A stretch of 17,716 nucleotides of DNA. Source: a virus (Duplodnaviria; Heunggongvirae; Uroviricota; Caudoviricetes). The position numbers and the translations under genes are program-made. The stretch lies in IMG/VR virus record IMGVR_UViG_2698536312_000017; one strand, written 5' to 3'. Positions 1 through 17,716 of the stretch are shown here, piece by piece. Positions within the stretch are counted from its first letter, which is position 1. The number at the start of each line of letters is the position of its first letter. The notes under the pieces were generated by a model that was not told where the DNA came from, ran no database searches, and was given only the letters and a program-made list of their open reading frames with translations.

Positions 1-525
1 ATGAACATAGCGTTGATCTGACTGCTCTTTACTGTAAACCTGAAGATTATCCCGTGCCGTCCCTTTATTCTGAAGGTCTGACAGATTGTTCTTCTGCCGC
101 AGGAATATCCTTTTCGGATCCTCAAGAAGATTTACCCAGCCCGCACTGTCGGAGCCTTCAGGATCGGTCAGGTTATCGTCTGCGGTATTCAGCCAGACCG
201 CTGTTGTTGCGACTCCGGCGAGAATGGCTCCTTTTGCATATCCACCAATGGCCCCCGCAAAACCGGCATTATACGTGTACAAACCGCCAGCCTGGGCGAA
301 CCGTATTGCTGCGGTAATATCGTACATCAGACCGTTAAAATCCTTGCCGTGTGGCGGTATACCTCCCGCTGAGACCGCTGTCATGGTCACCGGAGGAAAA
401 CCTGAATCATACGCAGCATTACCGCTCTCTCTGGTCTGCTGTGTCGCCTTGTCCGGGATACGGTTTTTATCTCCGGTACTCGCAAAGGGGACCGCCAGCT
501 GGCGGGGGTTATCACTGGCCTTCAT
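1..525 (-). CDS. tail fiber protein, N-terminal part (gene continues past the left window edge)
   Basis: Hand translation of the minus strand from ATG at 525..523 is open to position 1 (175 codons, [28 protein letters not shown]...). Strong RBS AAAGGAG about 7 nt upstream. Contains the NLSDL...ARDNL type motif I associate with enterobacterial phage tail fibers. Last gene of the baseplate cluster. Not in the ORF track because the stop lies outside the window. Confidence 0.7.
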
Positions 526-1117
526 TACGGGGCTCCTTTAAAACCACTGAAACATAAACACCCGGCGGGGATGGCAGTGCACCCGACGACTGGATAATCG
601 CCAGTTCTGCCAACGAGAGCGCGGACTCAAAGATGTAACTCATCCTCAATCCACCATTATTCAGAACATAAGCCCGGCGTTTTTTTCCGAACATAAATCT
701 CAGCATCCGGTTAATATCCGGAACGGAACAGTCAGTAATGTTCGACATGGCTTTCATCAGTATCAGCCGCCGGTATACAGCATCAGACAGGTCAACAGTC
801 CGGGTATCCGATTTTCCGTTGTAAAACGGTGCCTGATTAAACGGACAGGGATCATCCATTACCGGGGTGTCCATCCTGGACTCGCTGAAGCCCAGGTAAT
901 TAAAATCGTCCTTTACCGTCAGCCGGCGACTGACACCCACAATCTTTCCCCAGACATCAAGACCATACTTTTCTGCGGTATCGATGTTCCAGATAAGACC
1001 ATAAAAATCACTGATAAAACTGTCGGGGGAAAGCGCTGCGTTAAAGCTGTTAATGAGGGCATTGAGTCGGGGGCTGGCAGCATACTGCGCAAGCACAGTG
1101 GCAGCCACATTCTGCAC
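512..1117 (-). CDS. baseplate/tail-fiber-attachment protein (P2 gpI / Mu gp48-like position)
   Basis: 201-aa ORF between the J-like gene and the tail fiber. Start is GTG at 1117..1115, preceded by AGGAGG about 6 nt upstream. Function inferred from position and size only. Confidence 0.5.
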
Positions 1118-1118
1118 G

Positions 1119-2360
1119 TTATGCCTCCTGGAGTTTCACACTGATATCCGACACATCCAGAACCGGAATCTCATCTATCCCGAAAGTGACAGCCGTTGTC
1201 CATGACGAACCGTCACGGCTCACAGTAAGGCCCAGAATATCAATATGTTCCGGATCGGTTTTGTAAATGCCGGCATAGTAGCGCCCGGCAGAGACAACAG
1301 AGGCAACTCTTGCCCGCAGACCACCATCTGTACCATTAAATGCGTCCAGCACGGATTGCTGTACCTGTCGGGTAATATCTGAAGGCAGGTAGTCACTTTT
1401 TTTCAGCGTCACACTGACATGCAGACTGACGGGTTTGAGTGTCTGCCAGCTGATCACGTATTCAGGATACGGCGGATCGTACTCCTTATCTGCAACAGTG
1501 AACGTTGTGTTGCCATTCATATCAATACCCGGCGGAGCCTTACGCCAGATGGCAGCCGCGATATCTGCCGGGCTGCCGCCGTACACGCCAACATACAGCG
1601 AACCGGGTGTTAATGGATACTGACTGACTCCGGCTTTTTGTTCTGTTTTTTTCGGATTATGGGTGACGTAAACATCCACCACGTTTTCTACCGTGGAGAG
1701 TATTTCACCCCGGATGGCTTCCAGAATATTCCGGGCATTACGGGCAACTGAATTACGTCGGCGGTTTTCAAAGTCCGCACGGGTTTCCTCATCGCTGCCC
1801 GGCACACCGGCACTGGCGTTAGTGACACCTGACCAGCCAGGTATTGCCTTATAAATTTTATTCAGCGTCCCCACAGGACAGCCGACGGGGCCGGTGGACA
1901 AATTCAGAAATACCGCATCAACCTGCCCTGATGCGCCGATAGTGACGTCTGACTGACTGACATACTTATAACCGGCCTCATCCTGCGCCATACTGCCCGC
2001 CGGGATCAGCGTGCCAACCAGCCCGGTACAGGTCGCTGTTACTGTCGTACCTGTGGCCCCGCGGCGCTCCAGGAAATAAATCCTGCCTATTGCATCCTGA
2101 AAGCGACCACTGGAAAAGTCAGGGTTGATCTGGTTAACGATATACAGCAACTGATCGTTTTTATCCGCAATAATGGCGCTTTCGCTGGATGCAAGTTGTC
2201 CCTGCGGACTGCTCAGACTGGTACTCATGGCCCCGCCCAGCGCCGCCGAAAAATCAGCAAGCCTGCCGCTCAGAATATCCGCTTCATCCGGCACATTCAG
2301 CCCGCTATCCGAAATCTGTACAGCGGGCACTGCGGTAGAAAAAGATTTATTTTCACTCAT
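1119..2360 (-). CDS. baseplate J-like protein
   Basis: 413-aa ORF; ATG at 2360 overlaps the upstream stop (ATGA). Size and position (after the W-like gene, before the gpI-like gene and fiber) fit the baseplate J family. Confidence 0.65.
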   Translation of the reverse strand: MSENKSFSTAVPAVQISDSGLNVPDEADILSGRLADFSAALGGAMSTSLSSPQGQLASSESAIIADKNDQLLYIVNQINPDFSSGRFQDAIGRIYFLERRGATGTTVTATCTGLVGTLIPAGSMAQDEAGYKYVSQSDVTIGASGQVDAVFLNLSTGPVGCPVGTLNKIYKAIPGWSGVTNASAGVPGSDEETRADFENRRRNSVARNARNILEAIRGEILSTVENVVDVYVTHNPKKTEQKAGVSQYPLTPGSLYVGVYGGSPADIAAAIWRKAPPGIDMNGNTTFTVADKEYDPPYPEYVISWQTLKPVSLHVSVTLKKSDYLPSDITRQVQQSVLDAFNGTDGGLRARVASVVSAGRYYAGIYKTDPEHIDILGLTVSRDGSSWTTAVTFGIDEIPVLDVSDISVKLQEA

Positions 2361-2713
2361 AGCAGTACCGTAAAAATGTCATTATTGGTATCTGTAATAC
2401 GCAGCACACCTGTTACTGTCCGGGTTTGATCAGCTGTGACCTGGCAGACAGCGGCGCTCACAGTCGGCAGTTTAAGTGCTTCCTGTTGCAGAGAGGCATT
2501 CACCAGTTGTGTGCCGGGCCAGTGTCCGAGGATGCGTGGCCAGTAAGGTATGCCAGCCGTTGAGTCGTACCAGCACTCCCCCAGAAAAGTACTGCACGCA
2601 CACGCCACATCCTGAGCTACCGCATGGGGATTATCAGTAATGGCAAGATTTCCGGTATCATCAAGCAGGATATCCCATGTCCCGGTGTCAAGAAGAAGTG
2701 ATCGTGACTGCAT
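2357..2713 (-). CDS. small baseplate protein (gpW/gp25-like position)
   Basis: 118-aa ORF with AGGAG RBS upstream of ATG at 2713; lies between the spike and J-like genes. Assignment by synteny only. Confidence 0.4.
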   Translation of the reverse strand: MQSRSLLLDTGTWDILLDDTGNLAITDNPHAVAQDVACACSTFLGECWYDSTAGIPYWPRILGHWPGTQLVNASLQQEALKLPTVSAAVCQVTADQTRTVTGVLRITDTNNDIFTVLL

Positions 2714-2725
2714 GTTTTCTCCTGT

Positions 2726-3403
2726 TTACCGGGGTCCCTGCGTGGTTGAGCCGCCGGACTCAACGCCGCCGTGAACGTGGTTTCCAAAATCAATACCCCC
2801 GATGTTCGAACCGCCGGAAAGCCTGGACTGCCCGGTAACGTTAAGCCCCTTACTGACGGCGGTATCGCCGTTCAGCGCAATTTGTGGTGAGTTAACGGTG
2901 AAGCTTTTCGGCGCATTAATCACACCCTCAGGCGCGGATATCTCCACTTTCCAGGGAGATACAATCCGTATCTGGTTGTCATCAAATACCACAAACTGGA
3001 CGGGATCACCGTTGAGCACGCCACCCAGCCAGATGGCATCAGCATAATTATGGGTACGCTTTGATCCCGGCATCGCAGCCTGACGCGTGGCTTTTACCGC
3101 ACTGATATCCCGATCGCAGATGGCAAGAAAACCGATATCCCCCACATGTGGCGGCATAATCACCGCATTACCGCCCCCCTGTAGTCGCCATACGGGAATG
3201 TTATAAATCACCTCATGTTCAACCGGGGAACCGTCTGCTGCAACGCCCATTACCATCGGTCGGGCCTCAATAAATCCCTCTTCCACGGCTACCACCCGTC
3301 CCAGAGTGATAAACGCATGACGTCCGAGAAACTGCCGCAGCATAAAGTCCTGTGCATTGATTTCGCTGTTCACGTCTGTCGGGTTACTGAGTGGTTGTGC
3401 CAT
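2726..3403 (-). CDS. baseplate central spike protein (gpV-like)
   Basis: 225-aa ORF. The C-terminal third is Gly/Asn/Ser-rich and ends in GNHVHGG (HxH at 2771..2779), the apex motif of gpV-type spikes. Lies upstream of the W-like and J-like genes. Confidence 0.65.
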   Translation of the reverse strand: MAQPLSNPTDVNSEINAQDFMLRQFLGRHAFITLGRVVAVEEGFIEARPMVMGVAADGSPVEHEVIYNIPVWRLQGGGNAVIMPPHVGDIGFLAICDRDISAVKATRQAAMPGSKRTHNYADAIWLGGVLNGDPVQFVVFDDNQIRIVSPWKVEISAPEGVINAPKSFTVNSPQIALNGDTAVSKGLNVTGQSRLSGGSNIGGIDFGNHVHGGVESGGSTTQGPR

Positions 3404-4253
3404 TTTCTTCAGCCCTCATCATGGTACAGTTGGAACTCCACGGACCGCCCACGGTTCGCGAAGTAATGGTGTGTATCACCCCAGTGATCGTATAATCGCC
3501 CGTCATATCAGGCAGTGACGATTCCAGATGCGCTGGCCTGCCAGTAAAGAGATCGGGGCAGAATATCGTGGTGGCGCTGAGTCCGGTCATGGTGTAAACC
3601 GGATAGCCAGTCAGTCCGTGATCCGGCGAAATCAGTACCGGCGGAATATTCCGGTTCTGCCCTTTCGGCCAGATGGTGACTTTCTCCACATTCCCCAGAT
3701 CAATGTTAATATCGGCGGCTGAAGCGACATCCAGCATTTGTTGTACAACATTACCGGAAAAATGCGGGTCAGACAGACTGCGGCTGACCCCCTGGTTTTC
3801 AAATCCAAGCCCGACAGTTGACGCCAGCGCACGGATAATATCTGCAACCGCAACATCGCCCTTTGCGCTGAAATCTGCCGCCGGCTGATTACGCAGATTA
3901 AAATGAATCTGTCCTGTCAGAATGAGCGGAATATCCGGTGCCTGGTTGTAGTCGGCGTATGCATCAGTAATATCACCTTCAAAAATAAGCCGCCCGTCGG
4001 CCCACAGCCGCATTTTATTTGCGGTACTCTGCTCCTGTCGCCACACACCGCGCCAGCTTAAATTCGTCATATGCGCCGGTGACATTCCCCAGATATACAG
4101 CGTGATTTGTGTACCAGCCACCCCTCCATATACGGCAATACTGGCAAAACAGCTTGCGTCGGTAATGGTCAGCATATTGCCCTGGCCATTACCAAACGTT
4201 CGTCCGTCTGAAAGAGTGAACTCCACCGTTATTTTACGTTGTCTGTAGCTCAT
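3384..4253 (-). CDS. putative baseplate hub / tail protein
   Basis: 289-aa ORF translationally coupled to its neighbours; position between tape measure and spike suggests a hub. No diagnostic motif recognised. Confidence 0.35.
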
Positions 4254-4552
4254 ATCAGTTCCTCAGGTAACAGCCAGTAGAGCCGGTACCGGGATCCGAG
4301 CCCCCGCCAGTCAGGGTCACTATTCCCCTCCGTGTCGGTAAAAAACAGGTCCCCCTGAAACGGCAGGTATCCGTACCGGACAATCCGGTTATTATTCAGA
4401 CACAGCACGCCATACAGGCACGGTTCACCATTAACAATGATATCGATATACATCCCCGTAGTACGCTGATTCAGGCGAATGGTGCAGACCTGAGCGCCCA
4501 GTGTCACCGTAAACTGCTGGGCTTTAACGGGAGATAAAACAATTTCCAGCAT
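4250..4552 (-). CDS. hypothetical tail-module protein
   Basis: 100-aa ORF with start and stop overlapping both flanking genes; embedded in the tail operon. Function unknown. Confidence 0.4.
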
Positions 4553-5262
4553 CAGGTGATCCCCCTGTTCGTGGCGCTTCGTCTGTCAGCGTCTGACGGT
4601 TGTGTCACCGACGCCGTAACTGGCTGCGTTTTAACCGATGCGGCCCCTTTTGCTTTATCGTTGTCCGTGGGAGACGACTTATCCGTACTTCCCACTGACA
4701 CCTCTCCTGTATTCATTACGGTCTGAAATACCGCAGTAACCGTCAGTAAGGTCGGACCATTATTACTTCGCATTCGGTAGTCATATTTCACAAGGTCGCA
4801 GGATGTCCATGTCTTGTCCGGCGTCTCAATATCGTAGAGTCCTGCCGTGGTACGCATCCTTTCAAGCGTTTCCAGCACATTCGTCCGCGAGGTGGTGGAA
4901 AAATTTGTCAGGTTCGGGACGGATCCGGAAAAGGCCGTCCACCCCTCTACAGTGAAAGTCACATGCAGTTCCGGCGATCTCTGGATTTTATTAAAGGTGG
5001 TATAAGCCCCCTGCTCCACGGGGACGGTGGAAACAGAAGCCTCCGCGCCCACCTCAACGACAACAAAAGAATCCGGGGAGAAAGGTTTGCCACCCTTCTG
5101 ATGGGCACCTGCCGGATCATTCCGTGCGTAATAAATACCGAATGACGGTGCCAGTACACTGTTAATGAGTCCCAGGACACCGCCGCCACGAACTGCACTC
5201 AGTACGTTACTTTCACTGAGCGAAAAGTTATTCAGGGAAATATTATCGAAAGAAAAACTCAT
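4552..5262 (-). CDS. putative tail protein immediately after the tape measure gene
   Basis: 236-aa ORF; ATG at 5262 overlaps the tape measure stop (ATGA). Ser/Thr-rich C-terminus. Function by position only. Confidence 0.4.
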
Positions 5263-7280
5263 CCTGTTACCCCGCTGGAATAAACCGACACGAGCGCCGA
5301 ATTCGTGATACGCCGACGTGCGTCATCGGTAATACCCTTCACATTGTCCGACGTTGTGGTGACATTCAGTGTCCCGATATGCGTGGTTTCCGTTACGGTG
5401 GACTGCCATACAGGCGCAGGATGGCGCGACCGTATGGCCATTGCCGCACCCGGATAAGGCAGGTTCGCCAGCACCCGCGGAATATAGTTGCGGGTCTCCT
5501 CCGGAGCAGCAGCCAGTCCCTTACGCTGAACATTTCCCTCTCCCCAGTTATATGCCGCCAGAGCCTTAGCCAGATCGCCATGAAAAAAACGTATCAGGCC
5601 ACCAAGTTTTCTCGCGGCGGCATCAGCGGCTTTTTCGGGATCAAAGGCATCGTTCCCCCTCAGACCAAATTCCCTGGCCGTCTTCGGCATGAACTGAAAC
5701 AGTCCCATCGCACCAGCAGGTGAGACGGCAAACTGATTACCACGGGATTCGGTGATCGCAACGCTGCGCAGCAGTCCGGGCGGCAGGTTATATTTTTCCT
5801 CCAGTTGAGACAGTTTCGGTTGCAGCCAGCCTAACAGGGCTTCCCCGGTCTTCGTCGGTCGCTGGCGGTTTTGCATGGCATTACCGAGTTTTTCCTGCGT
5901 CGCACGCATACCCTGTAGCCAGGATTCACCGAAGGCTGCTTCCCTCCCGGTTGCCTGAGAAGCCTGAGTATCCAGCATGCCCTGCTGCCATACTGTGGGT
6001 GATTGTGCCCGGGTGATGTTGCCAGGCTTTTCTCCGGCATCCAGTTTTGTCTGATACGTCTCCATCTCTTTCTTATTGAAAAAGAAAGTCCCGTCTGAAG
6101 CCCAGAAAAAACCATGTGAATCCAGCCAGTCCTTATTTTCCCTGCCAACAATGGATGTCAGTAATCCGTCAACAACCGGGTAAAGCGCCGTTATCGCAAA
6201 AAGAAGGCCTCCGGGGCCACTGAGGGCTTTTGTCAGCCCCCGCACCCATGACGCCACTTTCAGCCCGATCAGCGTAATAATGACATTCTGCCAGCCCCCC
6301 AGTTCTCCGGCAGCCTTATTCGCCAGGGAGGCCACTGACTCAACGTCATTCAGAAATGTGGTGATAAACCTGTTCACTTCCTCCGGATGTTGCTGCATCC
6401 AGTCACCGAGTGTCTCCAGCCAGTGGCTGAGCTTCAGCGCGTACGGCATCAACGCGGTGCTAATCGTCATCCCGATGCCGGACCAGGTCTGATCGAGCTC
6501 AACAAGCTCTTTTCGTAGCTTACGGGCCAGCGCTGTACGCCCCGGCGTAACCTGCGAACGGGAAGTAAATTCGTCCACATCTTTCAGCGCATGACCGGAG
6601 CCAAGAAACTGCTGTCCGGCATAACTGAAGCCCAGCGCGTTGCCGTAGGCAGTTTGTTCGGACTTTGTCAGTCGCGGAAAAATAACCGCCAGCTTGCGCA
6701 TGATGGCTTCAGTGCTGTCAGTATTTAAATCAACACTAATGCCCGCCCTGGCTGCAACCTGAAACAAATCCTGTAACACAGGATCAAAGGACCTTCCGGC
6801 TCTGAAGGCCGCTTTTGCATTTGCAAGCCGGGAAAATGCCCCAGACATTTCCCCTTCATCAACATTATTTGCCCGCGCAGCCCGTAACCATCCGTCCAGA
6901 TTTCTGGCCTTCATGCCAAAAGCATCAGATTCCACGGACAGACGGTTCAGATCACGGGCAAAACCTGTTACCAGGTTCTTCAGCCCCCCCAGCGTCAGAC
7001 TGACACCCGCAAGAGCCAGAATCTCGCTACGGATCCCTGAAAAAAAACGGGACGCCCGTTTCCCGGCATCTTCCATTCGACGGGCCGTTTTATCAGCATC
7101 TTTTCCGGTTTTTTCCAGTGATTCACTGGTTTTCTTCTGTCCCTGACTGAATGTGTCAGCGACACCTTCCATCACCGTCGTGAGCCGGTTAAGGGCAGCA
7201 TGTACTGCCTGTTCCCCGGCAGTAAAGTCCCTGTCATCAATCCCGAGGGACAGAACAAGCTCATCAAGTACCTGCGCCAT
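5259..7280 (-). CDS. tail tape measure protein with lytic transglycosylase (SLT) domain
   Basis: 673-aa ORF with AGGAG RBS. Hydrophobic central segments (aa about 320-380). Residues about 495-605 carry family-1 lytic transglycosylase motifs (TESRGNQF...AMGLFQFMP...AAYNWGEGNV). Follows the chaperone gene. Confidence 0.8.
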   Translation of the reverse strand: MAQVLDELVLSLGIDDRDFTAGEQAVHAALNRLTTVMEGVADTFSQGQKKTSESLEKTGKDADKTARRMEDAGKRASRFFSGIRSEILALAGVSLTLGGLKNLVTGFARDLNRLSVESDAFGMKARNLDGWLRAARANNVDEGEMSGAFSRLANAKAAFRAGRSFDPVLQDLFQVAARAGISVDLNTDSTEAIMRKLAVIFPRLTKSEQTAYGNALGFSYAGQQFLGSGHALKDVDEFTSRSQVTPGRTALARKLRKELVELDQTWSGIGMTISTALMPYALKLSHWLETLGDWMQQHPEEVNRFITTFLNDVESVASLANKAAGELGGWQNVIITLIGLKVASWVRGLTKALSGPGGLLFAITALYPVVDGLLTSIVGRENKDWLDSHGFFWASDGTFFFNKKEMETYQTKLDAGEKPGNITRAQSPTVWQQGMLDTQASQATGREAAFGESWLQGMRATQEKLGNAMQNRQRPTKTGEALLGWLQPKLSQLEEKYNLPPGLLRSVAITESRGNQFAVSPAGAMGLFQFMPKTAREFGLRGNDAFDPEKAADAAARKLGGLIRFFHGDLAKALAAYNWGEGNVQRKGLAAAPEETRNYIPRVLANLPYPGAAMAIRSRHPAPVWQSTVTETTHIGTLNVTTTSDNVKGITDDARRRITNSALVSVYSSGVTG

Positions 7281-7892
7281 TTCTGTTCTCCTGTATCACC
7301 TGTTCGTTATGGGCATCCACATGAATTATTTCCAGCAGATCCCATAAGTCCTGCACACCAAGGACAGAATCCAGTTCAGCTTTTGAAGCCTTACCGGAGG
7401 AGATAACGGTCGCAATGGTACGGGGAACATTAACGTAATCCACCACCCCGAACGGTCTGTCGGGGTCGAGATAACGCGGGGGGATATCTAGCTGACGACG
7501 GTAGCGAAAAAATCCACATGCAGCTTAAAGACCTCCGCACGCAGATTAAGACGGGTAATGATTTCTTCAATATCCTCTTCAACAAGCGGTCTCCGGATGC
7601 TGCGTTTTTTCGGATCGGGAACAAACTGCACACAGTCCATCATTTCATCCATCAACGGACGCGCCTCATCAGGCGGAATTTTCGATAATGCTTTCAGCCC
7701 TTCAAGGGCAAGCGCAGCCATCCCCAGACTACGAACATCATCCGGTAACTCCACGCCACCACGCCCCATTGCCATAATGGCACGCATCGCCCACCATTCC
7801 GCCTGTGAGGCAGACATTTCGGTAAGATGAAATACCTTGCCCTTATCCCGTCCCTGACCTTCAATAGTGATAAATTTCTCTTTACGGGCCAT
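7264..7892 (-). CDS. tail assembly chaperone frameshift product (GT-like, predicted -1 frameshift)
   Basis: The -1 frame is open from 7524 to a stop at 7264..7266. A slip at TTTTTTC (plus coords 7506..7512) would fuse about 129 aa of the chaperone to an 80-aa extension (…HVDFF-RYRRQLDIPPRYLDPDRPFGVVDYVNV…). Prediction only. Confidence 0.45.
7488..7892 (-). CDS. tail assembly chaperone (G-like)
   Basis: 134-aa ORF between the tube and tape measure genes. Slippery heptamer T_TTT_TTC lies 5 codons before its stop, with an open -1 frame downstream. Confidence 0.65.
   Translation of the reverse strand: MARKEKFITIEGQGRDKGKVFHLTEMSASQAEWWAMRAIMAMGRGGVELPDDVRSLGMAALALEGLKALSKIPPDEARPLMDEMMDCVQFVPDPKKRSIRRPLVEEDIEEIITRLNLRAEVFKLHVDFFATVVS
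7506..7512 (-). other. candidate slippery heptamer T_TTT_TTC for the chaperone -1 frameshift
   Basis: Minus strand reads GAT TTT TTC in the chaperone frame; X_XXY_YYZ pattern; -1 frame open downstream. Confidence 0.45.
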
Positions 7893-8338
7893 CAGTTAAA
7901 AACCTCCGGAGTAATGGTTTCCCACTCAATAACCGCCTGCCCTGGCTGCAACGTACGAGCTGCATCAGGCAGCGCTTTCCATTGTTTGAGTACGCCATTC
8001 ACGCAGGTATATTTACGGCCAATCGCCGGAAGCAGGACGACAGCGTTACAACGGAATACAGCCCGACTGGCCCGGGATGTGGTTGACCAGGTATCAAAAA
8101 TATCCCGGCTGGGGGAATCCGGCATGATATGAAACGTCTGGATAATGTTGCTGTACACAAATCCCGCGGACAGTTTACCGTCAATACCGCGGGCAGTTTC
8201 CGCCAGTACCAGTGGATCGGTGCCATAAACGTTATCTGTTGCAAATCCCTGAAGTCGTACGCCGGAGGGATACAGATTATTCACTGTCAGCGTGATAATG
8301 GCATCCGCCGCAGTGATGGTGTTGTTGTTACCCGACAT
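7892..8338 (-). CDS. tail tube protein
   Basis: 148-aa ORF directly after the sheath gene (TAA then ATG adjacent) and before the chaperone; size and position typical of a contractile-tail tube. Confidence 0.6.
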   Translation of the reverse strand: MSGNNNTITAADAIITLTVNNLYPSGVRLQGFATDNVYGTDPLVLAETARGIDGKLSAGFVYSNIIQTFHIMPDSPSRDIFDTWSTTSRASRAVFRCNAVVLLPAIGRKYTCVNGVLKQWKALPDAARTLQPGQAVIEWETITPEVFN

Positions 8339-9823
8339 TTACTGGACCTCCGTGGATGCAATAACAAGTTTCTGGATACTACCGCCGTCACAGTACCAGA
8401 GCGTACAGGACGGACTGCTACGGGTTGCCCGCAAAGAGGGAAGCATATCGCCGATATACAGGTAATAGCCGGTGGCAAACAACGTTGAAGAAACATCTGC
8501 CCCCACAACATTGTTAATCTGTTTCTTCTGCGCCTCCGTCAGTGTCACCCCTTCACGGATCCCTCCCCAGCGTTTGTACTGCTGGATAACGTCACTCATT
8601 GACGCTGCAACCAGCGCCCGCCCTTCATTGTTGTAGGGGATCGTCTGGTTTGACTTGAATAACGCGATCACCGCCCCCTGCAAACTGGCATTCAGCCAGA
8701 TTTGCCCGCAGAAACTGTCCAGCCATTTAAAATCACCGGTAATAGTGCCATCCGCCCAGTAATCTTCCACCACACTGTTTTCCGCATATTTTCCGTAGAA
8801 ATTGTAACCTGCGGCGATCAGCGCATCATAATCGCTGCCACTGGTAACATCAGCGGCCAGCCCCTCATACTCGCGGAACTTGAATGATACACGCCCCTCT
8901 GGTCGGACAAAATCAAGGCACGCTGCATACCCCAGTACCGCTGCAGCCCGGTTACCATCAGTCGCGAAAACAGGTACAACAGAGCTGTAGTTATTGACAG
9001 CAATTATCTGGTAAGCGATGTGTTCAGTACTGCCTTTTACTCTGGCGTTGCCGCTGGTTGTCCATGCCACATAAAAGTAACGCTTGCCCTGCCCGTTTGC
9101 CCATGCAGAAAACGCCAGGTGTTGCTCGTCAGTGACCTCAGATACCGTGGAAAAACCCGCCCATTGCTGGGAAGCGGCCTTAATGGCTGCCATTGTGTCA
9201 GGGACATCAGATACAGGCGCGCCCCGGGATATCACCGCACCGGTGTTACTGGTCATCTTCAGGAGTTCTGCTGCCGATCCACTGCCGAACGTTATCGTGG
9301 TACTCCCGGGTTTCGCCCCGGCGACAGTAATGACAAAAGCATTCTGTGTGGTATCGAATACCACTGTAGCCACTGCTGCGGTCAGCGCTGTCTGTAGTGC
9401 CGTTGCAGCAGCGGCGAAGCTGGCGACACCGTTAAAATTCACTTCAATGCTGACGCTTTTCCCGTTAATACTCAGCATCAGCGTGCCGGAAAGTTTTTGT
9501 AGCTGTTCAACAGTCGCGCCCTTAAACGAACCGCTACGTAACCAGGCCGCCGATGGGGCAGGACTGAAACGGGAAAACAACAATTGCCCCGGCGTCCTGG
9601 TGGCATTTTTGAAGCCCTGGAAATAAAGCTGAGCGCGTGCGTACTCATCGGATAATGCACCAAAATACGCGGCCACATCATCCGGAGAGGAAAACGGAAC
9701 CACAGTGCCGACCGGAAGTAACGGATTACTGGTCAACAGCAGGCCGTTAAGATCGACGGCATTACCCGCCACAGCCAGCACACCGGGATTTATCTGTACA
9801 TCTTTACTGAGTGGAATTGGCAT
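8339..9823 (-). CDS. tail sheath protein
   Basis: 494-aa ORF with GGAGG RBS; the largest protein between the capsid and tube genes. Assigned by size and synteny. Confidence 0.7.
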
Positions 9824-10349
9824 TATCAGCCTCCGTTGTCCGGGTGATCACGTTGTCAAAAAACATCAGGGAAGTTGTGACCACAGGGTTAATCTGCATC
9901 TGAATATCAAGCGTCCAGCGCGGTTCATACTGTTGCTGACCGTTGGGGAATGTGGTGTTAAAGGGCTCTGAGCAATACAGCGGGGAAATCAGCCCACCGC
10001 CCTGCCGGAAAAGCCGTACGGAAAATTCAGACCGGAAAAGCGTTGCCAGCACCTGCGCGTTATCTGCCGCGTGAGGGCCGTAGAAATCAAGCTGGCAACG
10101 CCATTTTGTGGTACGGGTGATATGCTGAGAGCCCTCACCAGCCTGCGCTGGCGCAGAATATGCCACTACCGCAGTGGATAATCCGGTAACATCAATGCCC
10201 GTCATGGTGATGAAATTCCCCTGAGGCATCGGGACCTGGTTCTGCTGCGTTCGTTCAATCCCGGCATCAGAAAAAAGCCCCCGGAGATAATCACCGAGGG
10301 CCTGATAAAGAGCGCTTTCCGTAACGGAGAGGGTCACACCTGAAGGCAT
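9804..10349 (-). CDS. putative neck / tail terminator protein
   Basis: 181-aa ORF immediately upstream of the sheath gene, overlapping it by 20 nt. Function by position only. Confidence 0.35.
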
Positions 10350-10699
10350 ACAATAACCCTCATCCAGTCAGGCCAGATTTCCGGTACCTCAATCACCAGC
10401 CACGTTTCATCGCCAATAACAAATTTATCGCCTCCCTGTTGCCGGGCACGGTTAAGCCCGCACCAGTTACCATCGGTATACAATGTGGCGAAAACTCCCT
10501 GCTGGTTAAGATTATCAAGATGACGTAAATCAGCCTGGGTGACAGCCTGCTTTTGCACCCTGACGGAAACCGGATCTTCATACTCAGGTACGCGGGAATA
10601 ATCTGCCTGCTGTGTACTCCCGCGGGAACGATAAACCAGCGCGTCTGTAAAGGGATTTACCCGACGTACTGCGCCGGAAACAATACCGTGAAAGTTCAT
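10334..10699 (-). CDS. putative head-tail joining protein
   Basis: 121-aa ORF in the connector cluster; ATGA overlap with the upstream gene. Confidence 0.35.
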   Translation of the reverse strand: MNFHGIVSGAVRRVNPFTDALVYRSRGSTQQADYSRVPEYEDPVSVRVQKQAVTQADLRHLDNLNQQGVFATLYTDGNWCGLNRARQQGGDKFVIGDETWLVIEVPEIWPDWMRVIVCLQV

Positions 10700-11280
10700 T
10701 TTTTGCCCCCGTCTACAGAATAATCAACGCTGTCCATCATATGTCCGGTTTCAATAAGCGGGTTGTTAAAACCCTTTTGCCGGGCAGTGGATGCAGCGTT
10801 GGGCGGACTTTCCCAGTCGCGAACAGACATCTGCAACTGCCCTTTGATATGTTCTCCCATACACACCAGAGCGGTCGCAGTATCAAAATCATTCGCCCGT
10901 AATAAGGTCGCCATTTTTTCGCCCCATTCGGGACTTTTATGTTCGATCATCTTACGGAAGAACGGACGGGGGGGAATGGTGACCGTGTGCTCAGGAATAA
11001 CCACATCCTGAACAAAATTCCCTTTACCGGCTTTGACAAAGCGGTGCCCGGTTTCTCCCGTTTTTTCGTTATAGCGAAAGTGGAGCGTCTGCTCACGGGC
11101 GGGTATGACCGCTCTTCCACCAAACTCCTGAACTGCGGCAATATAAGCCACTGACGTACCGTCAGGGTAAGTTGCTCCCTCAAGAAAACCCACTTTGAGT
11201 TTTTTACCCAATGAAAGGTTCGCGGCAACCTGTTTCAGCTTCTGCCGGAACTGTTTGCCACCTGTGACTTTATTTACCAT
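10696..11280 (-). CDS. putative neck/connector protein
   Basis: The ORF track extends to 11550, but that N-terminal stretch is Arg/Trp/Cys-rich and overlaps the upstream gene. I chose the internal ATG at 11280 ([10 protein letters not shown]...), which has a GGGAGGGG RBS and sits just inside the upstream gene's end. Confidence 0.45.
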
Positions 11281-11728
11281 CGACGCCCCTCCCGTATCCC
11301 CGGTAATAATGCCCCGGATATCGCGAAGGTGACCCCCCGGAATGATACTGCATTGAGCGGTATGGCGCTGTCGCCTGCCAGTAGTCAGCACCCCAGGGGG
11401 TCTGGAGATACCACCACGACGCATCATTACTGCCGCTATTATCCACCGATACCGATACAGAACCTTCCGACGCACTGGTGATACGCCCCACCAGACCAGC
11501 CTGCCCGTCTCTCCCGTTTCCCAGCCCCCGCAATGCGCACAGATGCGCAACCAGCAGGAACAGAAGCTGTTCCCGCTCCTTCAGGTCGGTAACCGGACTG
11601 TCGTCCGTGTTATCCAGGTACAACGCGGTCGCCTGGTTAAACACCGCCGTCAGTAGCTCCGGTGTCACCATGGAAAACTCCGGGTACAGACTGACAAACA
11701 TCCGACAGTCAAACGTCACCGTACCCAT
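11270..11728 (-). CDS. putative head-tail connector/adaptor protein
   Basis: 152-aa ORF with AGGAG RBS. N-terminal region (…[14 protein letters not shown]…) resembles a small connector family seen after capsid genes; Gly/Tyr/Arg-rich C-terminus. Confidence 0.4.
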
Positions 11729-11733
11729 AGCGT

Positions 11734-12081
11734 TTACTCCTGAGGTTTACCCATCACTTCATCATTGCGGTTAACGCCCGGAGCCGGATTTTTCTGCGGC
11801 AGCGGTTCAAGGCCGGATTTAACGGCTTTCTGCTCCGTAGCCTGCGAGACTGCACTGTTCGCCTTATCCTGCGCAAAAATAACGCCATTTTTCACATAAG
11901 GTTGCTGTCCGTGCTCCGCCAGCCAGGCGTCAAAAAACACCTTATCGACCTGCGTCAGACCATAGCCCCCCACAATTTTAACCGCGTTATTCCGCCAGCC
12001 TGCCACCTGAACCCGTTTCTGACCCACTTCCAGCACCAGACCGTTCGGCAGTTTGCAGCCCACTGTTACCATTTCAGCCAT
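11734..12081 (-). CDS. hypothetical head-associated protein
   Basis: 115-aa ORF immediately downstream of the major capsid gene; unknown function. Confidence 0.4.
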
Positions 12082-12084
12082 AAC

Positions 12085-13113
12085 TCACACCCCCAGCATT
12101 TGTGCATACGCCAGCGGCTGGCGAATAATCGCCCCCCAGGTACCAGCGGATTTTTTCTGTTTCCAGGAAGACGTATCTGCCACTACCGCATGGGCGCGCA
12201 TTTTTTCAGTGAAAGCGCAATAGCCTGTATCCTGTTCACCCAGACGCTCCGCGATAAGCTGTACCAGCTCGCCAGCGTCAGAGGTGTATTCCACCGCCGT
12301 TTCAATGGTCATCGCCGGGAAATTTTTCGCCAGCAGATCGGACACGTTAACCCTGTACTGGTTTGTTTTGGTGAGGTTCACCTCTGCCAGCGGCGACATG
12401 CACAGTTTCATTTTGTCGGTACGCTCAATATGACCGTTAGTCTGTTTCACCAGTTGCTTAAAGAGTTTCACGATATCGTCATACACGCCCTGTCCGTCCT
12501 TGTCGTCCCACTTCAGTTTACCGTCAACGGTATCCGGGGTGATTGGTGCAGATAACGACGGATCATTCAGCAAACCGTAGTTCGTCAGTCCGGCAATACC
12601 GTAGAAATAGGACTTATTCTGGAACTTATTCAGCGTCAGTGCTGACGCCACGTTCAGCTCTGCCGCCCAGCCAATACGGGCTGCGCCGTACATCTCCAGC
12701 TCACGTTCGCCCCATACGGTGAAGGTCTGGAAGTGATAGCTCTGGCGCGGTACCCAGTTGACGTTTGCGCTTACCACCCCGTTGTTGCTGTAATCCCCGT
12801 AGGAACTCACCTCCCCGTCAGATTCTGCAATCGGGAATTGTGCCGACAGTGTCGTCCAGTCACCTTTTTTGGTTTCGCCCAGAATCTGAGCGGCTTTCAT
12901 CGGCGTCACCAGCACGCGGATCAGTTCTGGCTCAACGTAATTGGTGAAATACGCAGGGATACCGCTGTTAGCCGCTGTGACCAGCGCAGGCTGCGCGTCC
13001 ATCGCCAGTCCGTAATCGGCGGCGTACTCCTTCGGCAAATAAGCCTGTGCTCCGGGAAGAATAATCCCGTAGTCGCGACTTGCCGTCGCATAATGCTGTT
13101 TAAATTTATTCAT
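12085..13113 (-). CDS. major capsid protein
   Basis: 342-aa ORF; TAATG overlap with the upstream gene and a GGAG RBS. Position after the protease/scaffold-like and small head genes and before the connector genes; size typical of an HK97-fold capsid protein. Confidence 0.6.
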
Positions 13114-13595
13114 TATTTGCTCCAGGTACTGATCTTAATGACTTCTTTTGCCGCCGCAGCGCTGGCAACGGAAAACCAGGTTTCGACAAACCCCGCCATC
13201 GAGGTGCCAGCCGCCCCCGTGGCTATCTCCCCGGTGGCCAGTGAGGCAAATACTTTCTGCCCGATCGTCGCAGTAGTGGTGGTCAGCGCCCAGAAATCCC
13301 CCGACACCATCAGGGTGCATTCACGCCCCGGATAAATGGTGTTCGAGTCCCCGGCCAGCCATTCCACAATGGAAGCCTGCCCGTCACGAGGAACAAAACC
13401 CGCCGGTGCGCCGGCCCCCTTATTAGCGGCAACACCTTTGGTTACCCAGGCAAACCGGGCAATTACCAGCCCGTCAGGGCCGGTAATCAGCCCGCCATCT
13501 CCCGCCACATACGAGGCATGAGGGTTAGCACTGGCAAACGCCCCCGGAATACCCGGTGCCGGGTACTGGTTCATGTGTGTCTGAAAAGTATTCAT
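13113..13595 (-). CDS. putative capsid decoration / small head structural protein
   Basis: 160-aa Gly/Ala-rich ORF immediately upstream of the capsid gene. Confidence 0.35.
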
Positions 13596-13596
13596 A

Positions 13597-14946
13597 TCAG
13601 TAACCTCGTTTCAGTTTTGCACCGGGGAAATCTGCCGCAAACGTCGATGCGCTGGCCTGATCCATCGCCACACGGGGAGAGGATTTGGCCGTCTGCTTCT
13701 GCTCAACGGCAAACTTCACCATGCTGCGGTACGCACCCGGGTGAATACCCTGAATATCGATCCCCGTCTGTTCCAGCGCGGTACGGTAAACATCTTCGGC
13801 GCAGTCCATCGCCACCACATCGCCAATCAGCGGTCGCACTTCAGCTTCAGCCACACGGACGGCGCGGAAATTTTCAGCAGCCCGTTTCGTTGCCTGGTCA
13901 GTTGCCAGCCTGATTGCTGCATCCATCGCAGGTTTATCGACTTTCACATCGTCGGGTTTCACATCAGCCTCTTTTGTTTCGGGGGCTTCGTCGGTTGTCG
14001 GAGACAGTGCGGATTTAATTTTTTCCAGCACATCATCAGGAACTTTGCCGGACAGCAACGCCAGTACACTTTCCATCGGGCTGTCGGTATCAAATGCCTT
14101 CGACTCGTCAGTTAACCCGGTATCATCATCCCCGACCAGCTCCGGTACGGCTTCTGCTGATTCCATCAGTTGCGCCAGCTCCGCCGGTTCAATATCCATA
14201 TCCTGTGCCAGCCGTTCGCTGTAAGCAGTTTTTACCGCGCTGGCGATAGCTGCCGGACGCTTATACTGCGCCATCAGGCGTAACAAATCCCCGGGAGCCG
14301 CATCCTGCGCCAGACGCGGCGCAAGATAGGTTCCCAGCGCGGTAAGCACCGCCACTTCTTTTTTACTCAGTTTCATGCGTTTTAGCTCCTGAGGGAGAGA
14401 GTCCATAACAAGACAGTCCGACCCTACCCGGCCATCGCCGACCAGGGCCACATGATTTCCCACGATATTCCGCATAACGCCGTCATACGGCTCACCGTCG
14501 GGGGTGGTTCCCGGCGTCATATCTGCCACATAGGCATATGACGATGAGATTTCCCGTTGTTCATCCGTTTCTATCCCCGCGATGGCGGAGTTGTCCCAGA
14601 TGGACATGCCGTTAACCAGATAGGTACCGTCAAACTCGCTGTTGGCATGAGTCGTCCCCACCCGGTACTCGCGCGCGGGCGCGCCCGGATAATCGGGTTT
14701 GTGTCGGCACAGGACGGGAATATTGTTGAAGGTTGAAACTGCCTTGCGCAGTTCATCGGGGTCACGGTAAAGCTGATAAAGTTTTTTGGGGTCGAGTCCC
14801 AGCGCTTCCGCCCCCGGTATTTCATACCCGAAATAACCGCAGACGTTCGCCTTGCTGAGATTACTGCGCTCAATCTGGAGGCGACCGACTTTATCGAACT
14901 GCCTTACCGATGCCCGGTCAAACGCCAGCATTTCGGTAATAATCAT
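13597..14946 (-). CDS. putative prohead protease / scaffolding protein
   Basis: The ORF track starts at GTG 15018. I prefer ATG 14946..14944, which overlaps the upstream stop as ATGA and has a GGAG RBS, giving 449 aa. An acidic, Ala/Glu-rich central linker is scaffold-like. Lies between the MuF-like and capsid genes. Confidence 0.45.
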
Positions 14947-15713
14947 TTTTTCTCCAGTCCGGGAATAACGGCCTCCCAGCCACACCGGCAGTTGATTTCT
15001 TCGCCCGGCAGTACCCACTTACCATCCAGAAACATCCCCTTTCGCAGGTCAAACCGTTTACCGTTCGCCTTCACATGCGACGGACGCCATGTTTTACCCG
15101 CGCGGGAATGCCGCCAGACACCTTCAGTGATACCCACCGAACGCTGTCTGGCGGCCTGCATTACCGACGTTGCCTTATTGTTCTGGTCGCGGGCAATCAG
15201 CGCCGCGCGCCGTCGTGTGATGCCGTAACGTTTTTCCAGTTCATCGGTCAGCGTTTTCAGGTCACGTCCCCGGCCAACAGACTGCATGACCAGTGTTTCC
15301 ACCTGGGTGAGATGTTGCTGCGGGATGGAGCGAATGAGGTTCACATTCTCCGTGATGCTGGCCTGAAGTGCGGTATTCATCTCCGTTGTCATACGGAAAG
15401 GAACCGTAAACCCGGCATCACGGAGCGCAGTGTACAGTGACGCATCGCTGTTTTTCAGGACATCACCGGCAAACCGCCTCGCCAGCCGCAGGGCCATTTC
15501 GTCAAAATTTTTCTGCCAGCGCCTGGCAAGTTGCTGCATGGCACCACGCATCAGGTTAACGGGGGACGCATCCTGCGCGAGGTCTGTTTTACGGTACTCA
15601 GCCCGCAGCCAGTAAAGTACACTGTTGTGCATCCCACTGACGGCATTATCCAGTTGTCTGCGGTACCAGGCCTCAATCCCCGCGTTGGGTGAAATCCGCC
15701 TCAGGGTCTGCAT
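14943..15713 (-). CDS. head morphogenesis protein (Mu F / SPP1 gp7 family)
   Basis: The ORF track starts at TTG 15764; the first ATG is at 15713. C-terminal …[12 protein letters not shown]… is typical of the MuF/gp7 minor head family. Directly downstream of the portal. No extra C-terminal toxin domain. Confidence 0.7.
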
Positions 15714-16914
15714 TCGGGCCTTGCGGCGGATTTTCTTCGGTGTTGTCAATTTCAGTGTCGTCAATTTCGATGTCCCCGCTCAGGTCAATACCGCTGTACG
15801 GGCTGTCCTGCGCAGTCGCCAGCCGTTCGCGTACTTCGTTATTGGTCACTGCTCCGGTGCTCTCATAAATCTGATCCGTTTCCGCCTCAGTTTTACGGAT
15901 ATTCGCCAGTTGCTCGCGCGTCAGCTCATGCAGGGGTTCAAATTCAAACGTGATATCAGGATCGATATCGCCGAACTCAGACAACTGGATAATATCCAGC
16001 ACCTTTTTCAGCGGTTTCTTCAGAAGACGGGTGGCAAGTGCAGCAATGGTGTCGTAAAACACCCGGATTTCACCCTCACTCGACGCATTCAGTCCCGTTG
16101 GGCTCAGCCCGGCGAATTTTACGGACGGTATGGCACTGACAAAGAACATGTGTTCCTGTGCCTGCGCCTGAAGGGTGTCGAGGCCGCTCAGGGGAGTGTT
16201 GAACTGGAAAAACTCTTCGTTCGTCTTGTCCAGCATCAGCAGCCCGCGGTTATCACGGGTACGGTTAAACAACTCCGCGCGTTTTGCGTAATTCGGGTCC
16301 CTTTTACCACTTAATACCTGTGTCATATCCGTCTTAATCCCGCTCAGCGAAAACGAATGCAGCATATCGCCCACGCTGTCGCGTGTTCGCAGCCAGTTAT
16401 CAACATAAGGCTCAGCAATCTGAACCAGTGACAGGCCGCCAAAGTTGTAGGCCGGCTTCAGCATGTCCGGAACCGGACGGGAGATCAGATCAATCATGCG
16501 GCTGGCGTGAACCGTTTTTCCCATTACGTACCATTCGGACGGACGGTAAAAATCATCACTCAGCGGATTATCCGCGTTATATATACCCGGATACGTCCAG
16601 ACGGGTTCAATAACACGAAGCCCCAGCAGGGAACCTTTCGGGATTTTTTTGTCGGAAATAAACAGTCCGGATCCCAGCTCCGCCGGGTCAGTCCAGGCAG
16701 ATATACCCGATGGCGAACGCACATCAATATAAATCTGCCCTCGCCCGAAAAAGCCGTCGTGCTCAATCGCCAGTCTGAAAACGTCCTGTACGTTATAGTG
16801 CTCCAGTGCGTCAGTAAGCTGCGCTATGCGTGACGCGTGGCTGTCGTCCCCTTCTCCGACCGCCTTAACCTTTATCCACTTACGGGTCATCTCCTCGGCA
16901 AGCACACTGACCAT
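15673..16914 (-). CDS. portal protein (probably 5'-truncated by IS1; frame open up to 17003)
   Basis: 413-aa ORF from ATG 16914, directly upstream of the MuF-like gene, with an acidic C-terminal tail. The same frame has no stop between 16914 and the IS1 end at 17004. Confidence 0.65.
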
Positions 16915-17018
16915 ACGCCGGTACTCCGGTAACTGCGCCTGAAGTGCCAGATACGGATAGCCCGGGAAACCACCATAAACAAAATCAGGATAATGACTGT
17001 TCAGGTAATGACTCCAAC

Positions 17019-17522
17019 TTATTGATAGTGTTTTATGTTCAGATAATGCCCGATGACTTTGTCATGCAGCTCCACCGATTTTGAGAACGACAGCGACTTC
17101 CGTCCCAGCCGTGCCAGGTGCTGCCTCAGATTCAGGTTATGCCGCTCAATTCGCTGCGTATATCGCTTGCTGATTACGTGCAGCTTTCCCTTCAGGCGGG
17201 ATTCATACAGCGGCCAGCCATCCGTCATCCATATCACCACGTCAAAGGGTGACAGCAGGCTCATAAGACGCCCCAGCGTCGCCATAGTGCGTTCACCGAA
17301 TACGTGCGCAACAACCGTCTTCCGGAGACTGTCATACGCGTAAAACAGCCAGCGCTGGCGCGATTTAGCCCCGACATAGCCCCACTGTTCGTCCATTTCC
17401 GCGCAGACGATGACGTCACTGCCCGGCTGTATGCGCGAGGTTACCGACTGCGGCCTGAGTTTTTTAAGTGACGTAAAATCGTGTTGAGGCCAACGCCCAT
17501 AATGCGTGCAGTTGCCCGGCAT
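17019..17522 (-). CDS. insB: IS1 InsB (expressed as InsAB' transposase by -1 frameshift)
   Basis: 167-aa ORF …[52 protein letters not shown]… matches IS1 InsB as I remember it. Confidence 0.95.
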
Positions 17523-17716
17523 CCAACGCCATTCATGGCCATATCAATGATTTTCTGGTGCGTACCGGGTTGAGAAGCGGTGTAAGTGAACTGCAGTTGC
17601 CATGTTTTACGGCAGTGAGAGCAGAGATAGCGCTGATGTCCGGCAGTGCTTTTGCCGTTACGCACCACCCCGTCAGTAGCTGAACAGGAGGGACAGCTGA
17701 TAGAAACAGAAGCCAC
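17441..17716 (-). CDS. insA: IS1 InsA
   Basis: 91-aa [26 protein letters not shown]… matches IS1 InsA as I remember it; GTG start at the window edge. Confidence 0.95.
17457..17467 (-). other. IS1 programmed -1 frameshift site (TTAAAAAACTC, A6C)
   Basis: Minus-strand TTAAAAAACTC in the insA/insB overlap; this is the established IS1 InsAB' frameshift motif. Confidence 0.85.

Follow-up and report, generated by a model that had tools for sequence, protein, structure and literature searches.

A tail assembly chaperone gene with a probable programmed -1 ribosomal frameshift, in a contractile-tail prophage of the E217/PB1/Pam3 type

The DNA of IMG/VR virus record IMGVR_UViG_2698536312_000017 that was analysed here, a stretch of 17,716 nucleotides (nt) referred to throughout as the window, carries the tail module of a prophage whose tail assembly chaperone gene is followed by an overlapping reading frame that is probably reached by a programmed -1 ribosomal frameshift. 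The window was searched against the Pfam, NCBIfam and PHROG families, and coordinates are positions in the window unless another sequence is named. Its tail-module genes all lie on the minus strand, in the order sheath, tube, chaperone and tape measure, followed by baseplate genes of the E217/Pam3 type. The features of the chaperone locus are given below (aa, amino acids; ORF, open reading frame; expect values, E, in square brackets).

8339..9823, minus strand: tail sheath gene [Pfam DUF3383, E 2e-140; phrog_205, tail sheath]
7892..8338, minus strand: tail tube gene, immediately upstream of the chaperone gene [Pfam E217_Gp32, E 1.8e-17; phrog_1964]
7488..7892, minus strand: tail assembly chaperone gene, with the 0-frame product TAC-N of 134 aa and 15.2 kDa [phrog_1932, "tail assembly chaperone", E 3e-59]
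7506..7512, minus strand: slippery heptamer T_TTT_TTC (GA[T TTT TTC]) in X_XXY_YYZ phase, the proposed site of the -1 shift
7488..7505, minus strand: 0-frame tail ATVVS and TAG stop, which would be read by non-shifted ribosomes only; short and poorly conserved among relatives
7264..7506, minus strand: -1 frame extension, 80 codons plus TGA [phrog_3976, E 6e-32]
7264..7446, minus strand: separate 60-aa GTG ORF as annotated by PGAP (WP_000228829.1), the 3' part of the extension
5259..7280, minus strand: tape measure gene, 673 aa, with a C-terminal SLT lytic transglycosylase domain at residues 493-598 [phrog_2013, E 4e-246; phrog_2276; Pfam SLT]

The chaperone gene starts behind a strong Shine-Dalgarno sequence (dG -10.2), and its 0 frame ends with ...CTG CAT GTG GAT TTT TTC GCT ACC GTC GTC AGC TAG, in which the heptamer (7512..7506) stands five sense codons ahead of the TAG at 7490..7488. 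Read in the -1 frame from the heptamer, the sequence continues as FF-RYRRQLDIPPRYLDPDRPFGVVDYVNVPRTIATV..., so that the peptide begins FF RYRRQLDIPP and runs through 80 new codons to a TGA at 7266..7264. The ATG of the tape measure gene is at 7280, an overlap of 17 nt with the end of the extension. The predicted fusion protein, TAC-NC, consists of residues 1-129 of TAC-N and the extension, 209 aa and 23.7 kDa in all [join(7892..7506, 7506..7264)]. Because the -1 peptide matches a conserved phage family, phrog_3976, it is taken to be genuine coding sequence.

An initial annotation, made from the letters and an ORF list, had proposed a -1 frameshift at this site. Its reasons were the T_TTT_TTC five codons before the chaperone TAG, a -1 frame open for 80 further codons and ending inside the tape-measure start, and an ORF list which holds the downstream piece solely as the 60-aa GTG ORF. 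Each of these points is borne out on the minus strand, and the position between tube and tape measure genes, which it had also named, is confirmed by the Pfam and PHROG matches of the two neighbours.

The heptamer count alone was dropped as evidence, because the window has about 5 times as many T6C and A6C runs as expected. TTTTTTC occurs 16 times where about 3 occurrences are expected; counted on both strands against dinucleotide-preserving shuffles, the A6C and T6C runs give 14 and 16 matches, again with about 3 expected. The 20 minus-strand genes contain 26 in-frame X_XXY_YYZ heptamers, among which the T_TTT_TTC at 7512..7506 is the sole one whose -1 frame stays open more than one codon past the 0-frame stop, reaching 74 codons beyond. 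A -1 frame open for at least 80 codons is found at just 1.8% of the codon positions in these genes. The motif by itself is not beyond chance, whereas the combination of heptamer and long open -1 frame is unusual.

A tblastn search with the conceptual 209-aa fusion returned 134 phage records, and 12 diverse relatives were examined. Their hosts are Pantoea, Burkholderia, Pseudomonas (two), Klebsiella, Aeromonas, Edwardsiella, Acinetobacter, Acetobacter and Vibrio, plus a Helicobacter prophage, and their chaperones share 33% to 59% identity with that of the window. The extension lies in the -1 frame in all 12, and in 11 of them an in-phase T_TTT_TTC, T_TTT_TTA, T_TTT_TTG or G_GGT_TTT occupies the homologous LH(V/L)(D/G)F(F/L) codons. 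The exception, Klebsiella phage RCIP0114, has GCT TTT GTA, in which the U_UUU (T_TTT) tetramer is kept. In this phage and its relatives (L005, about 1950..1960) the P-site half of the heptamer is lost and the -1 extension is intact. U_UUU is ranked among the most shift-prone tetramers in E. coli (PMC4066793), and phages of the RCIP0114 type may use single-tRNA slippage or shift at a lower efficiency.

Closer relatives give the same picture. With the single chaperone protein as query, 92 loci were found in bacterial genomes and IMG/VR, representing 53 unique sequences, and 52 of these have an in-phase T_TTT_TTY, a few with seven T. The sole exception (L087) carries a premature stop far upstream. 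Relatives with GTT GAT have a TGA in the -1 frame directly ahead of TTT TTT; the change of frame must therefore fall in the 21 nt that reach from the heptamer to the 0-frame stop. In 9 complete E. coli genomes the gene is split at the same codon and with an identical frame offset, and so it is in lytic phage isolates from at least 10 host genera. A comparison of homologues, which the initial annotation had suggested as a check, accordingly finds both heptamer and -1 extension kept from E. coli and Salmonella prophages to phages of Acinetobacter, Aeromonas, Burkholderia, Acetobacter and Helicobacter.

Codon usage was compared among 55 unique sequences with 58-100% protein identity, using the 60 columns in which at least 90% have the same residue. 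Only three of these columns have a single codon, namely K4, D127 (GAT in 55/55) and F128 (TTT in 55/55), and the next residue, F129, is encoded by TTC in 53 and by TTT in 2. In the remaining conserved Asp columns GAT and GAC both occur (40/15, 47/8 and 36/18), as do TTT and TTC in the remaining conserved Phe columns (24/31 and 6/48), while the flanking His and Val codons vary freely. Frozen synonymous sites at the heptamer are the signature expected of a functional slip site.

The -1 peptide is conserved from the heptamer onwards, which lies 20 codons upstream of GTG 7446. A basic RR patch just past the slip site extends to distant phages, and behind it, immediately past the 0-frame stop, comes LDIPP, unchanged in 55/55 unique close relatives (at least 58% identity); LDIP is kept in Bcep781 gp47, and more distant phages diverge at LDIPP. 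These two conserved elements lie 10-20 codons upstream of the GTG. Over the 13 codons between the 0-frame stop and the GTG, the third position is variable in 13/13, the first in 8/13 and the second in 8/13. The GTG itself has no Shine-Dalgarno pairing (dG +0.4), whereas 16 of 17 neighbouring genes score between -5.6 and -10.3. None of the 89 extension codons of Acetobacter phage phiAO1 is an ATG, GTG or TTG, and the first candidate start is codon 46 in Burkholderia E436, codon 42 in the Helicobacter prophage and codon 33 in Klebsiella RCIP0114; the conserved core of the extension begins near codon 22, which puts these starts 10-24 codons inside it. Called lengths of the extension ORF are scattered across databases, from 39 to 125 aa. 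From this comparison we judge the 60-aa ORF at 7264..7446 to be an annotation artefact corresponding to the 3' part of the extension.

Many NCBI protein records from E. coli, Salmonella and Serratia label the 60-aa ORF "transcription elongation factor GreA". GreA and GreB are proteins of about 158 aa with an N-terminal coiled coil and C-terminal domains. The identity was rejected, given the length of 60 aa, the location in a tail module and the lack of any Pfam or NCBIfam match for the extension at E values up to 1-5, and the label looks like a propagated misannotation. A separate observation concerns a few sequences of the E. coli/Salmonella type in which an ATG equivalent to 7519 opens a +1-frame ORF, MWIFSLPSSARYPP... 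(7519..7430 in the window). In proteins P0121 and P0123, this +1-frame ORF is joined to the extension by indels that lie downstream of the heptamer, in C6 or G-rich runs; these indels are either real fusion-breaking variants or homopolymer assembly errors.

In three lineages the predicted fusion exists as one uninterrupted ORF beside a separate short chaperone paralogue:

Bcep781 (Burkholderia phage), L010 1522..2441: gp47 (long, 170 aa) and gp46 (short)
Ralstonia phage Jenny, L009 1495..2462: 30B_00041 (long, 186 aa) and 30B_00042 (short, 136 aa)
Joint Genome Institute (JGI) metagenome contig L109, 460..1584: TAC-NC-like ORF (199 aa) and TAC-N (173 aa)

All three fusions align over the junction (LHVDFF followed by RYRRQLDIPP, against LHVDFFQHWQPMDFIPP and LHVAFLTDREPLDIP). 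The alignment of Jenny 30B_00041 takes in fusion residues 6-196 and spans the 129/130 junction [E 7e-16], and the short 136-aa protein of the same phage aligns with TAC-N residues 13-113 [E 7e-11]. Contig L109 has the order tube, TAC-N, TAC-NC, tape measure, and its junction reads CAT GTT GAT TTC TTT CAA (LHVDFF-QHWQPMDFIPP), in which the slip site is lost; because this junction is without a homopolymer, its single-ORF fusion is not a sequencing artefact. The order of the two genes differs, the long gene being first in the Bcep781-like Naesvirus and in Bakolyvirus and the short one first in L109. An apparent fusion of 178 aa on contig L110 (P0159) was not counted, as there is a probable indel upstream of its G_GGT_TTT site.

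The two-gene lineages are homologous to the window in both parts and differ from it in having separate paralogous genes, no frameshift and no remaining slip site. Judged by these alignments, they suggest that the N part and the extension can act as one polypeptide and that the short form is needed alongside it; a short and a fused form are exactly what a frameshift would deliver. Tentatively, and with the odds somewhat against it, the frameshift and the two-gene arrangement may have replaced each other more than once within the chaperone family. If both arrangements are functional, the frameshift would be dispensable as a mechanism, and the family would offer a natural system for asking if it is selected for control of the ratio or merely yields two proteins with a shared domain.

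These data bear on three other explanations of the locus. The records themselves imply two independent genes, the 60-aa ORF being translated from its own GTG into a small separate protein and the heptamer being incidental. PGAP and most phage records annotate it so, and in Pantoea phage PA-1 the conserved core is preceded by a GTG whose Shine-Dalgarno sequence is plausible (dG -8.1). The window's GTG has no such sequence, however, and the peptide is conserved from well before it; several homologues offer no start codon before, or anywhere in, the extension, and the starts that have been called are scattered. The relation between the frames is moreover always -1, the synonymous sites of the heptamer are frozen and single-ORF fusions exist. 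We regard two independent genes as very improbable. Still less can be said for decay or accident, by which a mutation or assembly error would have split one original gene of a defective prophage. An IS1 element does interrupt this prophage copy, and indels or premature stops occur in a few related contigs (L087, L053, L027 and L106) and in P0121/P0123. The 9 complete E. coli genomes nevertheless have the same split, as do 52 of the 53 unique relatives and the lytic phages from at least 10 host genera. Such a recurrence is incompatible with independent errors, and the comparative data effectively refute this explanation.

The main mechanistic rival is slippage of RNA polymerase. Stuttering on the T6 run would add one U to some transcripts and lead to the same outcome, TAC-N plus TAC-NC. 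Efficient transcriptional slippage in bacteria usually needs runs of about 8-9 or more, and codon phase is irrelevant to it. The site is indeed a homopolymer, with six T here and seven in a few relatives, and A6/T6 runs are unusually frequent in the window; A7/U7 runs are prone to transcriptional slippage (PMC4066793), and the title of reference 76 in PMC12846349 indicates that a non-frameshifting route has been proposed for T4-like chaperones. The run of six is, on the other hand, shorter than polymerase slippage generally needs, and the phase of the T run relative to the 0 frame is strictly conserved, which slippage of the polymerase would not require. Homologues with G_GGT_TTT or GC T_TTT G have only 4-5 T and yet keep the heptamer or tetramer phase needed for re-pairing of tRNA, and because of these we rate polymerase slippage as unlikely.

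A programmed -1 ribosomal frameshift in the chaperone gene is in our opinion a highly probable reading of the comparative data. Most ribosomes would read the 0 frame and stop at the TAG at 7490..7488, giving TAC-N. A minority would slip back one base within U_UUU_UUC (7512..7506), where the two tRNA-Phe on UUU UUC would re-pair to UUU UUU, and would continue in the -1 frame for 80 more codons, as far as the TGA at 7266..7264, to make TAC-NC. The 15.2-kDa TAC-N would thus be the major and the 23.7-kDa TAC-NC the minor product. If lambda gpG/gpGT and P2 gpE/gpE+E' are taken as the model, the N domain common to the two products would coat the tape-measure protein, and tube protein would be recruited by the C-terminal extension and polymerise into a tube around the tape measure; neither TAC-N nor TAC-NC would be expected in the virion. 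We infer that slippage occurs and that it is ribosomal, as we infer its efficiency, its role and the protein-protein contacts; the assignment of the N domain to the tape measure and of the extension to the tube is taken from lambda (PMC5009743).

In that phage, G binds the tape measure and T the tube protein, the two products are made at a ratio of about 30:1 and both are absent from virions (PMC5009743). The wide conservation of the tail-chaperone frameshift and the roles of gpG and gpGT are established (PMC5009743). The likeness to the scheme proposed for the window lies in a short, abundant chaperone and a rare fusion arising from a -1 slip close to the gene's 3' end, directly upstream of the tape-measure gene; the lambda T ORF as annotated overlaps H by 8 nt. 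Lambda differs in being a siphovirus and in its heptamer, G_GGA_AAG, which is read by tRNA-Gly and tRNA-Lys and is not a Phe-Phe site.

Phage P2 is nearer. It too has a contractile tail, and its E/E+E' gene, part of the FETUD tail operon, lies between the tube gene FII and the tape-measure gene T. The P2 heptamer, T_TTT_TTG, stands six codons before the E stop, compared with five for the T_TTT_TTC of the window, and its extension ends 8 nt inside T, compared with 17 nt inside the tape-measure gene here. P2 E has 91 aa, its extension 51 residues and E+E' 142 aa, as against 134 aa and 80 codons in the window. The P2 frameshift has been demonstrated experimentally and is annotated in its record, whereas that of the window is predicted from sequence comparison and is unannotated. 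The initial annotation had likened the arrangement to the chaperone frameshifts of lambda and P2, and its geometry does prove to be a near copy of P2 E/E+E'. All the positional and recoding features of the lambda G/GT and P2 E/E+E' class are found at this locus, which, as judged from its sequence, is a putative member of it; it most closely resembles P2 E/E+E' overall and would work like lambda G/GT.

A close parallel is the analysis of phage Adele, in which a myovirus locus of Pakpunavirus and Vandenendeviridae, routinely annotated as a chaperone plus a hypothetical protein, was re-read as TAC-N/TAC-NC (PMC12846349). The evidence there was comparative, namely a conserved GTTTTT motif and an always-open -1 frame in Pakpunavirus and its relatives (PMC12846349). 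Both the kind of evidence and the poly-T slip site agree with those of the window; the phages belong to a different family, and that paper does not cover the clade of the window. A literature search found no published description of a chaperone frameshift for this clade, and every record inspected for this widespread phage group annotates two separate hypothetical proteins and no frameshift.

Several results weigh against a programmed ribosomal frameshift of the lambda and P2 kind. The initial annotation's proposal stands as far as the comparative sequence evidence goes, and fails in the stem-loop or pseudoknot which it had named as a feature to be looked for. Folding of 66 and 113 nt after the heptamer gave z-scores of 0.06 and 0.42, neither significant, and RNAalifold on 18 relatives gave -0.54 kcal/mol and 3 pairs, that is, no conserved downstream structure. 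A search of Rfam produced no match. Downstream of the heptamer lie TAGATATCCCCCC and a distal GC hairpin (about 7466..7445); this hairpin is the sole local one, starts 40 nt past the heptamer and is not conserved. No hairpin or pseudoknot was found 5-9 nt downstream, where IS3, dnaX and coronavirus-type sites have theirs. As an upstream stimulator resembling a Shine-Dalgarno sequence, the GGAGG at 7536..7532 was rejected, being 19 nt upstream, outside the 6-17 nt of PMC4066793, and not conserved, as Pantoea phage PA-1 lacks it. The H_HH.U_UU.Y class, of which U_UUU_UUC is a member, is listed with the motifs that are efficient in E. coli, and in reporters in that host U_UUU_UUC gave 0.12% frameshifting when no stimulator was present, 0.9% when the IS911 stimulator was added and 7.6% when the IS3 pseudoknot was (PMC4066793). 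On the first of these values the efficiency at the window's site may be low or may rest on an unrecognised element. The UUUUUUG of P2 has an equally low reporter value (PMC4066793) and yet works in the phage, where the frameshift is annotated as essential (P2 record) and has been reported to be 2-3 times more efficient than that of lambda (PMC5009743).

Also to be set on this side are the comparisons with lambda and P2 proteins and the structure prediction. Alignment with hhalign gave probabilities below 1% for the N part and the extension against P2 E and E', and the same program found no sequence similarity to lambda G. An AlphaFold2 model of the chaperone from an 18-sequence alignment was too poor for fold comparison, with a predicted local distance difference test score (pLDDT) of 52 and a predicted template modelling score (pTM) of 0.34. 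The chaperone and extension proteins of the window have no Pfam or NCBIfam match, and a search of the PDB returned no meaningful relative for either part; Pfam Phage_TAC_15 matches 3 of 12 homologues weakly [best E 9.6e-4] and leaves the window protein unmatched. Finally, with IS1 in the portal gene, this particular copy of the signal may no longer matter biologically.

What is new to this clade is a probable and unannotated case of the classic recoding of tail chaperones, which extends an established rule and does not change it. Its practical value is one of annotation, since a single recoded gene, join(7892..7506, 7506..7264), would correct the gene model. The records affected include prophages of E. 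coli, Salmonella, Serratia, Enterobacter, Pantoea, Xenorhabdus and Photorhabdus, and lytic phages of Acinetobacter, Aeromonas, Edwardsiella, Klebsiella, Pseudomonas and Burkholderia. If the frameshift is real, the extension family phrog_3976 would be, by analogy, the half of the chaperone that recruits the tube. Several of the phages concerned, among them the Acinetobacter Obolenskvirus group and those of Klebsiella, are candidates for therapy and are being re-engineered, and a synonymous "clean-up" of the T run would then break tail assembly. Wider interest is limited to the co-existence of frameshift and two-gene versions; a second point of interest is how a stimulator-free U_UUU_UUC would reach a useful efficiency.

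The tape measure and the SLT transglycosylase, which share one gene in the window, are split into two genes in some related phages. Aeromonas phage 2_D05, for instance, has a tape measure gene and a separate gene for a "tail injection transglycosylase".

Positions 1..17001 of the window match a prophage of E. coli CFSAN029787 at 99.75%, with one gap over 17 kb. About 70 codons into the DUF1073 portal gene, the reading frame is broken by an IS1 copy at 17004..17716, whereas the portal gene is intact in CFSAN029787. This copy of the prophage is probably defective, and the signal would be best studied in intact relatives. The IS1 genes are

17716..17441, minus strand: insA, within the window
17522..17019, minus strand: insB, within the window

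and the classical -1 frameshift motif of IS1, A_AAA_AAC, lies in their overlap at 17465..17459. Another ORF of the window (10696..11279, minus strand) has a homologue in CFSAN029787 that PGAP flags as a "frameshifted" pseudogene; it was rejected as a second recoding site, being a single intact ORF in the window. In CFSAN029787, which is of the enteroinvasive type, the type III secretion system (T3SS) effector gene ipaHa adjoins the tail-fibre end of the prophage (L001 18775..18901), which suggests that ipaHa is phage-associated cargo or a neighbour.

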